Shown here: one piece after another, positions 2,403 through 2,616 of the stretch
Position numbering within the stretch: position 1 is the first letter of the stretch
Layout: every line of letters begins with the position of its first letter
Source: a virus
Taxonomy: Duplodnaviria; Heunggongvirae; Uroviricota; Caudoviricetes
Length of the DNA: 4,597 bases
Direction: 5' to 3' (one strand)
IMG/VR virus record: IMGVR_UViG_2657245068_000005
Made by a program: the position numbers and the translations under genes
The notes under the pieces: generated by a model
Told to the model about the DNA's origin: nothing
The model's database searches: none
What the model saw: the letters and a program-made list of their open reading frames with translations, nothing else

Positions 2403-2610
2403 CGCAAAAGCGGGCGAAACGATATATACAATAAGGAAAGCACTCTATCCAACAAACCACTCACAGTTAATCGGAATAAAAGCAGAGTGCTTATGAATGA
2501 TCGCCTGCCCGAAGGTTAGTATTTCTGCACAGCAATTTTGCAAAAAAAAGCGATCATTCATAACTTAAACGTCTTTCAGTCACTCCGGGATTTCCCATCA
2601 TCGCAGACTG
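2403..2610. repeat. Direct repeat copy B (about 208 bp), continuous with the tRNA array
   Basis: Near-identical to 2185-2391, and it continues without a break into the 3' flank of tRNA-Gly. Confidence 0.9.
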
Positions 2611-2616
2611 AAAGAC
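2437..2616 (-). other. Structured noncoding element: three consecutive long inverted repeats (candidate RNA hairpins) downstream of the tRNA array
   Basis: IR1 is AAGCACTCT (2438-2446) paired with AGAGTGCTT (2484-2492). IR2 is a perfect 14-bp repeat, TTATGAATGATCGC (2491-2504) paired with GCGATCATTCATAA (2550-2563), with the palindrome TTTTGCAAAA in its loop. IR3 is GTCTTTCAGTC (2571-2581) paired with GACTGAAAGAC (2606-2616). There is no convincing ORF. Confidence 0.5.

Follow-up and report, generated by a model that had tools for sequence, protein, structure and literature searches.

In Escherichia coli, the 3' external transcribed spacer of the glyW-cysT-leuZ operon, 3'ETS-leuZ, is reportedly a sponge for small RNAs (sRNAs), a finding attributed to Lalaouna et al. 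2015. Phage T4 produces two stable small RNAs, 'species 1 and 2' (rnaC / rnaD), which are made and processed with its tRNA cluster, and GOLLD and ROOL, large structured phage non-coding RNAs (ncRNAs) that are represented in Rfam and whose function is unknown, are typically encoded beside phage tRNA genes. Lambdoid phages carry 'moron' sRNAs in the interval between genes Q and S, including STnc100/PasD, the anti-sRNAs AgvB/AsxR, and PasA/PasC (PMC4104026; bioRxiv 10.64898/2026.05.13.724894; PMC8550237). Here we analyse a stretch of 4,597 nucleotides (nt) from a virus of the Caudoviricetes (IMG/VR record IMGVR_UViG_2657245068_000005), referred to throughout as the window. It is the late-region junction of a lambdoid prophage, with every gene on the minus strand, and an element built of three long hairpins lies in it between the tRNA-Gly(UCC) gene and the holin gene. 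That this region is non-coding and selected for RNA structure on the minus, late-transcript strand is supported by the observations below. We give about an even chance to the fuller reading, namely that the element is a structured ncRNA of ~200 nt (hairpins P1, P2 and P3, a variable linker and an intrinsic terminator) and stands last in a phage tRNA operon that is autonomous and inserted after the Q-dependent late promoter, ahead of the lysis genes.

The original prediction had described three consecutive inverted repeats (IRs) directly downstream of tRNA-Gly, and these are found where it placed them. Together they span 2438-2616, directly 3' of tRNA-Gly(UCC) on the minus strand, with perfect stems of 9 base pairs (bp) in IR1 (arms 2438-2446 / 2484-2492, 37 nt between them), 14 bp in IR2 (2491-2504 / 2550-2563, 45 nt) and 11 bp in IR3 (2571-2581 / 2606-2616, 24 nt). 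On the transcript they form the outer stems of P3, P2 and P1 respectively, as follows.

2402-2622, minus strand: ncRNA, the copy joined to tRNA-Gly, its 3' terminator cut by the run of Ns at 2392-2401 (covariance model R1 and fold)
2571-2616, minus strand: P1 hairpin (IR3), outer stem of 11 bp plus one G-U and one C-G pair
2584-2602, minus strand: kink-turn-like asymmetric internal loop of P1, 5' side GAUGA (2602-2598), 3' side GA (2585-2584), flanking a UGGG/CCCG hairpin
2491-2563, minus strand: P2 domain (IR2), outer stem of 14-16 bp enclosing an inner hairpin, UUUUUGCA...UGCAGAAA, and a conserved junction
2438-2492, minus strand: P3 domain (IR1), outer stem of 8-9 bp abutting P2 and enclosing inner helices and the G/U-rich stretch GGGUGGUUUGUUGGAU
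2172-2391, minus strand: second ncRNA copy, 5'-truncated and contiguous with the holin gene (direct repeat D1; R1 163 bits over 2208-2406)

Folding the minus-strand RNA, a check that the original prediction had itself proposed, bears it out: the RNA running 2622->2402 has a free energy of -74 kcal/mol, against -53.6 +/- 3.9 kcal/mol in dinucleotide shuffles (z = -5.2, with 0/200 shuffles as good), and its minimum free energy structure consists of exactly the hairpins of IR1-IR3 plus inner helices. Because the fold is so far outside the shuffled range and the predicted structure is made of those same hairpins, they are not due to chance. The plus strand reaches -57.5 kcal/mol, 16 kcal/mol weaker than the minus strand, and loses the inner helices. 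On the minus strand P1 contains an inner hairpin of 4 bp (2586-2597) with a sequence-variable loop, and in most relatives the IR2 stem is lengthened by positions 2505 and 2549, which face each other in P2. For P2, a second inner hairpin (ACUGACC...GGGUUCAG) was left out of the structure since variants disagree on its pairing.

Further evidence for the structure comes from its relatives. Pattern scans of IMG/VR and of metagenomes returned ~175 instances of the element, comprising ~70 distinct sequences that fall into two clades, the 'window type' and the 'HK639 type', the latter being the more diverse. Across these variants all three stems are kept, as the original prediction had suggested looking for in related prophages. 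In an alignment of 56 distinct sequences, the RNAalifold consensus comprises P1, P2, P3, their inner helices and the terminator, and standard pairs occupy 98.8% of 3,450 alignment cells; a control in which the 3' partners are slid by 1-3 columns, preserving phylogeny, leaves only 40-46% paired. Fifteen pairs are altered on both sides, amounting to 146 cells as opposed to 3-30 when slid, and the observed values were reached by 0/500 shuffles. In P1, helix 1 is paired in 99.6% of cells, with two pairs changed on both sides and A-U replaced by G-U at a third, and a stepwise series U-A, U-G, C-G can be followed across three loci (L139, L148 and L006). In P2, five pairs of helix 3 and one of helix 4 have changed on both sides, and in P3 the same is true of four of the eight pairs of helix 5. 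Many one-sided changes are from A-U to G-U or from G-C to G-U, which are tolerated only on the minus-strand RNA; A-U to G-U occurs at three positions, in 13, 12 and 15 sequences. Within the HK639-type clade taken by itself there are seven pairs with double changes, chiefly in P3 and in the P2 inner helix. One relative (L100) lacks ~30 nt of the P2 interior and retains the 14-bp P2 stem, now with three G-U pairs. We consider it established that the three stems and the P2 inner helix are real, and that they form on the minus strand. A covariance model, R1, scores the tRNA-joined copy of the window at 208.6 bits (E = 1.5e-57) over 2426-2626.

The claim that selection acts here on RNA structure rather than on coding thus stands, given stems maintained by compensatory and G-U changes and a reading frame that is unconserved (see below). 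The evidence first offered for it does not. That evidence was a comparison of the two copies of the region in the window, 2185-2391 and 2403-2609 (direct repeat D1), which differ at five sites: 2431, 2461, 2505, 2506 and 2549, in the coordinates of the second copy. None of these is in a perfect arm, so the observation that all five substitutions avoid the IR1 and IR2 stems is correct. The window, however, contains two runs of Ns, 10 at 2392-2401 and 11 at 1874-1884, with near-duplicate sequence to the left and right of each (the two holin copies around the second run are 89% identical), and in complete genomes and phage genomes the holin and the interval between tRNA-Gly and holin occur once each. 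Because both copies flank N runs and complete genomes have one, the two copies are scaffold joins of near-identical contigs, and we reject tandem duplication; the joined contigs probably derive from two related prophages.

What can be said of the parts of the RNA that do not pair? About 40 unpaired bases are invariant across the element, while the P1-P2 linker and the linker from P3 to the terminator are unconserved. The P1 interior, 5'-GC GAU GA UGGG (variable 3-4-nt loop) CCCG GA GU-3' (2604-2582), is invariant in 56/56 and in 36/36 aligned variants, corresponding to columns 19-33 and 38-48 of alignment A2. In P2 the inner loop with its junction (...GCAAAAUUGCUGUG...AAAUACUGACC...), and in P3 the G/U-rich stretch, are nearly invariant. 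A kink-turn consists of a canonical helix, a three-base bulge, tandem sheared G.A/A.G pairs and a second, non-canonical helix; on the opposite strand, a GA adjoins the first of these helices. Its consensus is said to go back to Klein et al. 2001 and to Lilley, and the internal loop of P1 matches that arrangement at the level of sequence. With a putative C box (AUGAUGG) facing a D-like box (CGGA), P1 would also resemble a box C/D motif. A search of 2100-2625 against Rfam at E <= 10 returned only two box C/D small nucleolar RNA (snoRNA) models and, in the holin leader, STnc540 at 12.8 bits; the snoRNA matches fall on the kink-turn-like loop, and at 12-14 bits against thresholds of 50-70 the element is not a snoRNA. 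As judged from sequence, its pattern of conservation looks more like that of a folded or protein-binding RNA than of a simple base-pairing sRNA.

Of 5,426 complete E. coli genomes, 512 carry the 221-nt interval at 95% identity or more and 526 carry it at 80% or more, always on the chromosome and with a median of one copy per genome; it is unannotated in all 60 of the matches listed. It also occurs in the Stx2 phage phi467 and three other coliphages, and phage HK639 has a form that is 75% identical. Among representatives scanned at one genome per species, the strict P1 pattern matches E. coli and Shigella flexneri only.

In nearly all family members the element is preceded by an array of tRNA genes in the order Met/Ile(CAU), a variable slot, Thr(UGU) and Gly(UCC), and begins a few bases past the CCA of tRNA-Gly(UCC); in the window P1 starts ~7 nt after it. 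The features of this array in the window are:

2942-2970, minus strand: sigma-70-type promoter-like site, TTGCAA-17 nt-TATTAT followed by a GC-rich discriminator, ending ~10 nt before tRNA-Met (consensus scan)
2932-2623, minus strand: tRNA array of four genes (ARAGORN and Rfam tRNA matches)
2857-2932, minus strand: tRNA-Met/Ile2(CAU) (ARAGORN, Rfam)
2779-2855, minus strand: tRNA-Lys(UUU) (ARAGORN, Rfam)
2701-2776, minus strand: tRNA-Thr(UGU) (ARAGORN, Rfam)
2623-2697, minus strand: tRNA-Gly(UCC) (ARAGORN, Rfam)
~2172-2198, minus strand: weak intrinsic terminator of the window copy, CGCCCGCUUUUGCG-U7 (sequence)

The association with the array is evident at both ends. Upstream, the hexamers and spacing of the promoter-like site (TTGCxx-17-TAT(T/C)AT) are kept at an equal distance from the first tRNA in more than eight upstream sequences with no relation to one another, implying that transcription of the prophage tRNA array from this predicted promoter would not depend on Q. 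Downstream, both clades have an intrinsic terminator after the RNA, with different stem sequences. Many relatives have a stronger one than the window, with a GC stem of 6-7 bp and a U tract (GCCCGCUUUUGCGGGC-UUUUCUUUUC or GCCUCGCUUCGGCGAGG-U5-6), and in HK639 the site carries a terminator annotation. Beyond the terminator the sequence is mosaic, leading to the holin in the window type, to STnc100 and two more terminators in HK639, and to unrelated DNA at other loci; since what lies downstream differs between loci, the element is associated with the tRNAs and not with any particular downstream gene. In HK639 and at two other loci tRNA-Gly has decayed, yet the element is intact. Given that it travels with the array and promoter, and not with the holin, and that the downstream sequence is mosaic, the element is better described as the last gene of the tRNA operon. 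The unit formed by the predicted promoter, the tRNAs, the ncRNA and the putative terminator is on this evidence an autonomous 'moron' in the late leader.

Two observations on these leaders deserve mention in their own right. First, the second tRNA of the array has a conserved scaffold and a hypervariable anticodon loop (2779-2855 in the window, and seven further loci: L010, L024, L068, L071, L072, L121 and L135). In window-type arrays the slot holds Lys-UUU in the window and Arg-UCU in others, and in HK639-type arrays the loop is cut to 5-6 nt (TAAAT, TTTAT, TTAAT, CCAGGT, CCAGAT or CTTGGT), such tRNAs being called by ARAGORN as Phe(aaa), Stop(tta), Leu(taa) or '???'. This variation may stem from decay or from diversifying selection, of which anticodon nucleases would be one possible driver. 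Second, copies of STnc100 stand beside pieces of the element in leaders running from Q to the holin: there is one in HK639 (L001 3706-3911, minus) and there are three in Salmonella Fels-1 (L192 1273-1486, 1687-1809 and 2810-3028, plus). The HK639 copy, next to the element on the same leader, scores 52.6 bits against a threshold of 47 and has its own terminator. As STnc100 follows the element there as the next module, the HK639 leader is a stack of sRNA modules, and the late leader is more generally a stack of such modules exchanged between phages.

The alternative that survives best is that the element is a cis-acting leader of the late (lysis) mRNA: once the tRNAs have been excised from the Q-antiterminated late transcript, its stable hairpins would stand at the new 5' end and guard the downstream mRNA against 5'-end-dependent decay by RNase E, or else they would offer a processing site for RNase III/E or insulate the holin from the tRNA promoter. 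We regard this as possible, if rather unlikely. In the window, in the related genome AR_0089 and in phi467 the late transcript does include the element, ahead of the lysis cassette; P1 starts only ~7 nt past the tRNA CCA, and with a terminator immediately before the holin, transcription from the tRNA promoter would be kept from reading through. A stabiliser or insulator, however, needs just a hairpin and a terminator, which leaves the invariant internal loops and the ~40 invariant unpaired bases unexplained, and the sequence after the terminator is mosaic, with STnc100 and two annotated terminators intervening between element and holin in HK639. The original prediction had entertained a late-operon regulatory RNA: a structured RNA on the late-transcript strand is indeed what we find, whereas its role as a leader signal of the late operon gives way to the better-fitting description as last gene of the tRNA operon.

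Far less probable is that the region encodes a small protein, the 38-codon open reading frame (ORF) at 2445-2561 on the minus strand (MNDRFFLQNCCAEILTFGQAIIHKHSAFIPINCEWFVG). This frame is open in 103 of 175 instances, some HK639-type copies included, with equal length and the same C-terminus (...WFVG), and two phage records annotate a hypothetical protein here. In the remaining 72 instances (41%) it is broken, often by a 1-nt change in the length of a T run among near-identical sequences (T7 in 30 instances, T8 in 95, T9 in 4), and in L100 its C-terminal part is lost. The start, which is ATG or TTG depending on the clade, is within the P2 stem with no Shine-Dalgarno sequence at a usable distance, and a +1/-1 indel pair puts the middle third of the ORF in a different frame between clades. 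Nor is the substitution pattern that of a coding sequence: variable sites by codon position number 3:6:8 and 2:4:3, with no third-position excess, and synonymous to nonsynonymous counts of 7:10 and 3:6 give no indication of purifying selection on a protein.

It is likewise very improbable that the arms act as DNA, whether as palindromic protein sites, as cruciforms, or as a hotspot, within the lambdoid late region, for recombination or the insertion of cargo. In DNA they are long perfect palindromes, and mosaic junctions fall right after the terminator or, at one locus (L020), at the end of P3. The stems, however, accept G-U and not the equivalent C-A; the three G-U pairs of the L100 P2 stem would be cruciform mismatches on the other strand, and the G-U-rich inner helices form only on the minus-strand RNA. 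The suggestion that the element marks the site where Stx phages carry their toxin genes also fails, for in phi467 the stxAB cargo is upstream of the tRNAs and the element stays between tRNA-Gly and the holin.

Finally, a T-box-like riboswitch that senses a ligand or tRNA and controls read-through into the lysis genes is hardly credible. What might bring one to mind is the kink-turn-like motif at the foot of the first hairpin, the terminator at the 3' end, the heptamer GGGUGGU (the core of the T-box sequence) and a UGGA complementary to the UCCA end of tRNA-Gly, all visible in the sequence itself. In 200 nt, however, chance should produce motif matches of 4-7 nt; P1, a hairpin of 46 nt, lacks a specifier loop; even at E = 10 on the short interval Rfam yields no match to a riboswitch or T-box model; the clades have different terminator stems with no corresponding changes upstream; and there is no expression platform, as the P3-terminator linker is unconserved and none of the stems competes with the terminator. 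The last point applies equally to the earlier idea of an antitermination signal or switch, to which nothing in the data points.

If the element is the last gene of a tRNA operon, its expression might run as follows. Transcription would start at the sigma-70-type promoter just upstream of tRNA-Met, probably in the lysogen, and after induction would also come from the late promoter by way of Q-modified polymerase. RNase P and RNase E, followed by 3' trimming, would free the tRNAs and leave an RNA beginning a few bases after the CCA of tRNA-Gly, with P1 near its 5' end. In the lysogen the transcript would stop at the terminator, which would keep transcription of the operon out of the holin gene. 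The freed molecule would act as RNA, and its contacts with a protein or RNA partner would likely be made through the kink-turn-like loop of P1, the inner loop and junction of P2 and the G/U-rich stretch of P3. As to function, we offer only a doubtful suggestion: a new class of phage ribonucleoprotein or decoy RNA working with the tRNA array, the kink-turn-like hairpin recruiting a host or phage protein, and the RNA serving, as the hypervariable second tRNA might too, in counter-defence against host nucleases that target tRNAs or in manipulation of host translation. It would then be something other than an ordinary base-pairing sRNA.

Several points weigh against an operon-encoded RNA of this kind. 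First, the discrete RNA, its ends and its stability are inferred. Second, the 3' end may be inefficient in the window, since its terminator is weak and below the threshold of the consensus scan, which did not call it: it consists of a short stem of 3-4 bp (CGC/GCG or CCGC/GCGG) and a U6-7 tract. Third, the three hairpins may be separable units rather than one fold, because P1 occurs alone at one locus, P1 with P2 at others and P2 alone in Fels-1. At the first of these (L139, 5990-6215, minus) the P1 hairpin, ~135 nt downstream of a tRNA-Gly, is followed by unrelated sequence and a different terminator; in L148 (649-894, minus), L169 and L177 P1 and P2 are present with P3 replaced; and Fels-1 contains decayed remnants of the element, a decayed P1 and an intact P2 with an ORF inserted between them. 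Fourth, most double changes separate the two clades, a single deep split, so the number of independent covariation events is modest, and a naive all-against-all scan aimed at pseudoknots was uninformative, clade-specific columns seeming to covary with many others. Fifth, the kink-turn of P1 is a match at the level of sequence only, and E. coli and other enterobacteria are not known to have an L7Ae-type protein.

The other features of the window are those of a lambdoid late region:

4518-4177, minus strand: DUF968/HNH protein
4176-3811, minus strand: RusA
3820-3131, minus strand: antiterminator Q (PF06323)
2113-2171, minus strand: leader from the ncRNA terminator to the holin start, including the Shine-Dalgarno sequence GGAGGUGAGG (sequence)
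2112-1897, minus strand: phage-21-type (S21-type) holin, start codon at 2112 (PF04971)
1055-1684, minus strand: 209-aa ORF between holin and endolysin, no Pfam match
989-456, minus strand: lysozyme with a hydrophobic N-terminus
474-55, minus strand: Rz

In AR_0089 the slot of the 209-aa ORF is occupied by a frameshifted gene of the YdfR family. The Shine-Dalgarno region of the holin (UGCGGAGGUG on the transcript, 2118-2127) is over 10 nt a perfect complement to holin codons at 2062-2071, ~46 nt downstream on the minus strand; a hairpin between the two could sequester the ribosome-binding site and thereby affect holin translation. Q is closely followed downstream by a late-promoter-like site (3142-3114, minus) and this in turn by a strong hairpin and U tract resembling tR' (3066-3040, minus); the two together would yield a short, tR'-terminated transcript. 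Over the same region (3038-3142) Rfam gives weak isrK/isrJ matches of 22-23 bits, below threshold, and its HK639 equivalent matches isrJ at 34.6 bits against a threshold of 37.

Does the element belong to a described RNA family? Searched over the whole window at E <= 1, Rfam gave no match in 2402-2622, and none of the models for AgvB, AsxR, STnc100, Esr41, IsrJ, IsrK, GcvB, T-box, ribozymes or GOLLD/ROOL matches the element. Conversely, model R1 at E <= 10 found nothing in the PasA, PasB and PasC loci of strain E2348/69 (where PasB lies between tail genes), the PasD loci not being included in that search. For PasA and PasD the published fragments differ from the element, and an 11-nt match to PasA in a supplement disappears once its printed 3'-to-5' orientation is allowed for. 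Kinship with GcvB was also considered and rejected: short strings are shared (GUCUGCGAU and UUUGCAA.AUUG) but they are not collinear, and the Rfam GcvB model finds no match in the element. In the literature, characteristic strings of the element gave only chance matches in a full-text search, and nothing relevant was found on prophage 3'ETS RNAs or on sRNAs between tRNAs and holin, nor did the searches turn up transcriptome or interaction data from any carrier strain.

An RNA present in about a tenth of complete E. coli genomes, Shiga-toxin and enterotoxigenic strains among them, has thus gone unannotated in nearly all records inspected. It adds a well-supported structured RNA to the 'moron' region between Q and the lysis genes, already known as a hotspot for regulatory sRNAs, and indicates, on the basis of predicted motifs, that the prophage tRNA arrays found there would be complete transcription units with promoter, tRNAs, a non-tRNA RNA and terminator. 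Were the RNA to bind a protein through its kink-turn-like loop, or to act together with the tRNAs, that would be relevant to the question of why temperate phages have tRNA arrays; the kink-turn-like hairpin, and the tight coupling of the element to an array containing a hypervariable tRNA, deserve the most attention. The family alignment and model R1 would allow annotation pipelines to label the element.

How, then, does the element compare with the systems set out at the beginning? GOLLD and ROOL are 3-4 times larger, come from other hosts, and their models do not extend to it. The T4 RNAs belong to a virulent, T4-like rather than a lambdoid phage and are interspersed among the tRNAs, with no apparent relation to the element. 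3'ETS-leuZ is closer in arrangement: it too is a non-tRNA RNA between the last tRNA and the intrinsic terminator of the operon, on the same strand, and is co-transcribed with the tRNAs and freed by tRNA processing, as the element would be by analogy. Yet 3'ETS-leuZ is ~50 nt long with one base-pairing site, whereas the element has ~200 nt, three covarying domains and many invariant unpaired bases, and the two have no sequence similarity. With the moron sRNAs it shares a niche, the interval between the Q-dependent late promoter and the holin, where every module comes with a terminator of its own. The element differs from them in being sense, ~200 nt long and linked to tRNAs: AgvB/AsxR measure 51-60 nt, and three of these RNAs (AsxR, PasA and PasC) are antisense to the late transcript. 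Matching neither Rfam nor the Pas RNAs checked (PasA, PasB and PasC), the element is a new RNA family of a known kind, that of prophage-encoded structured small RNAs.

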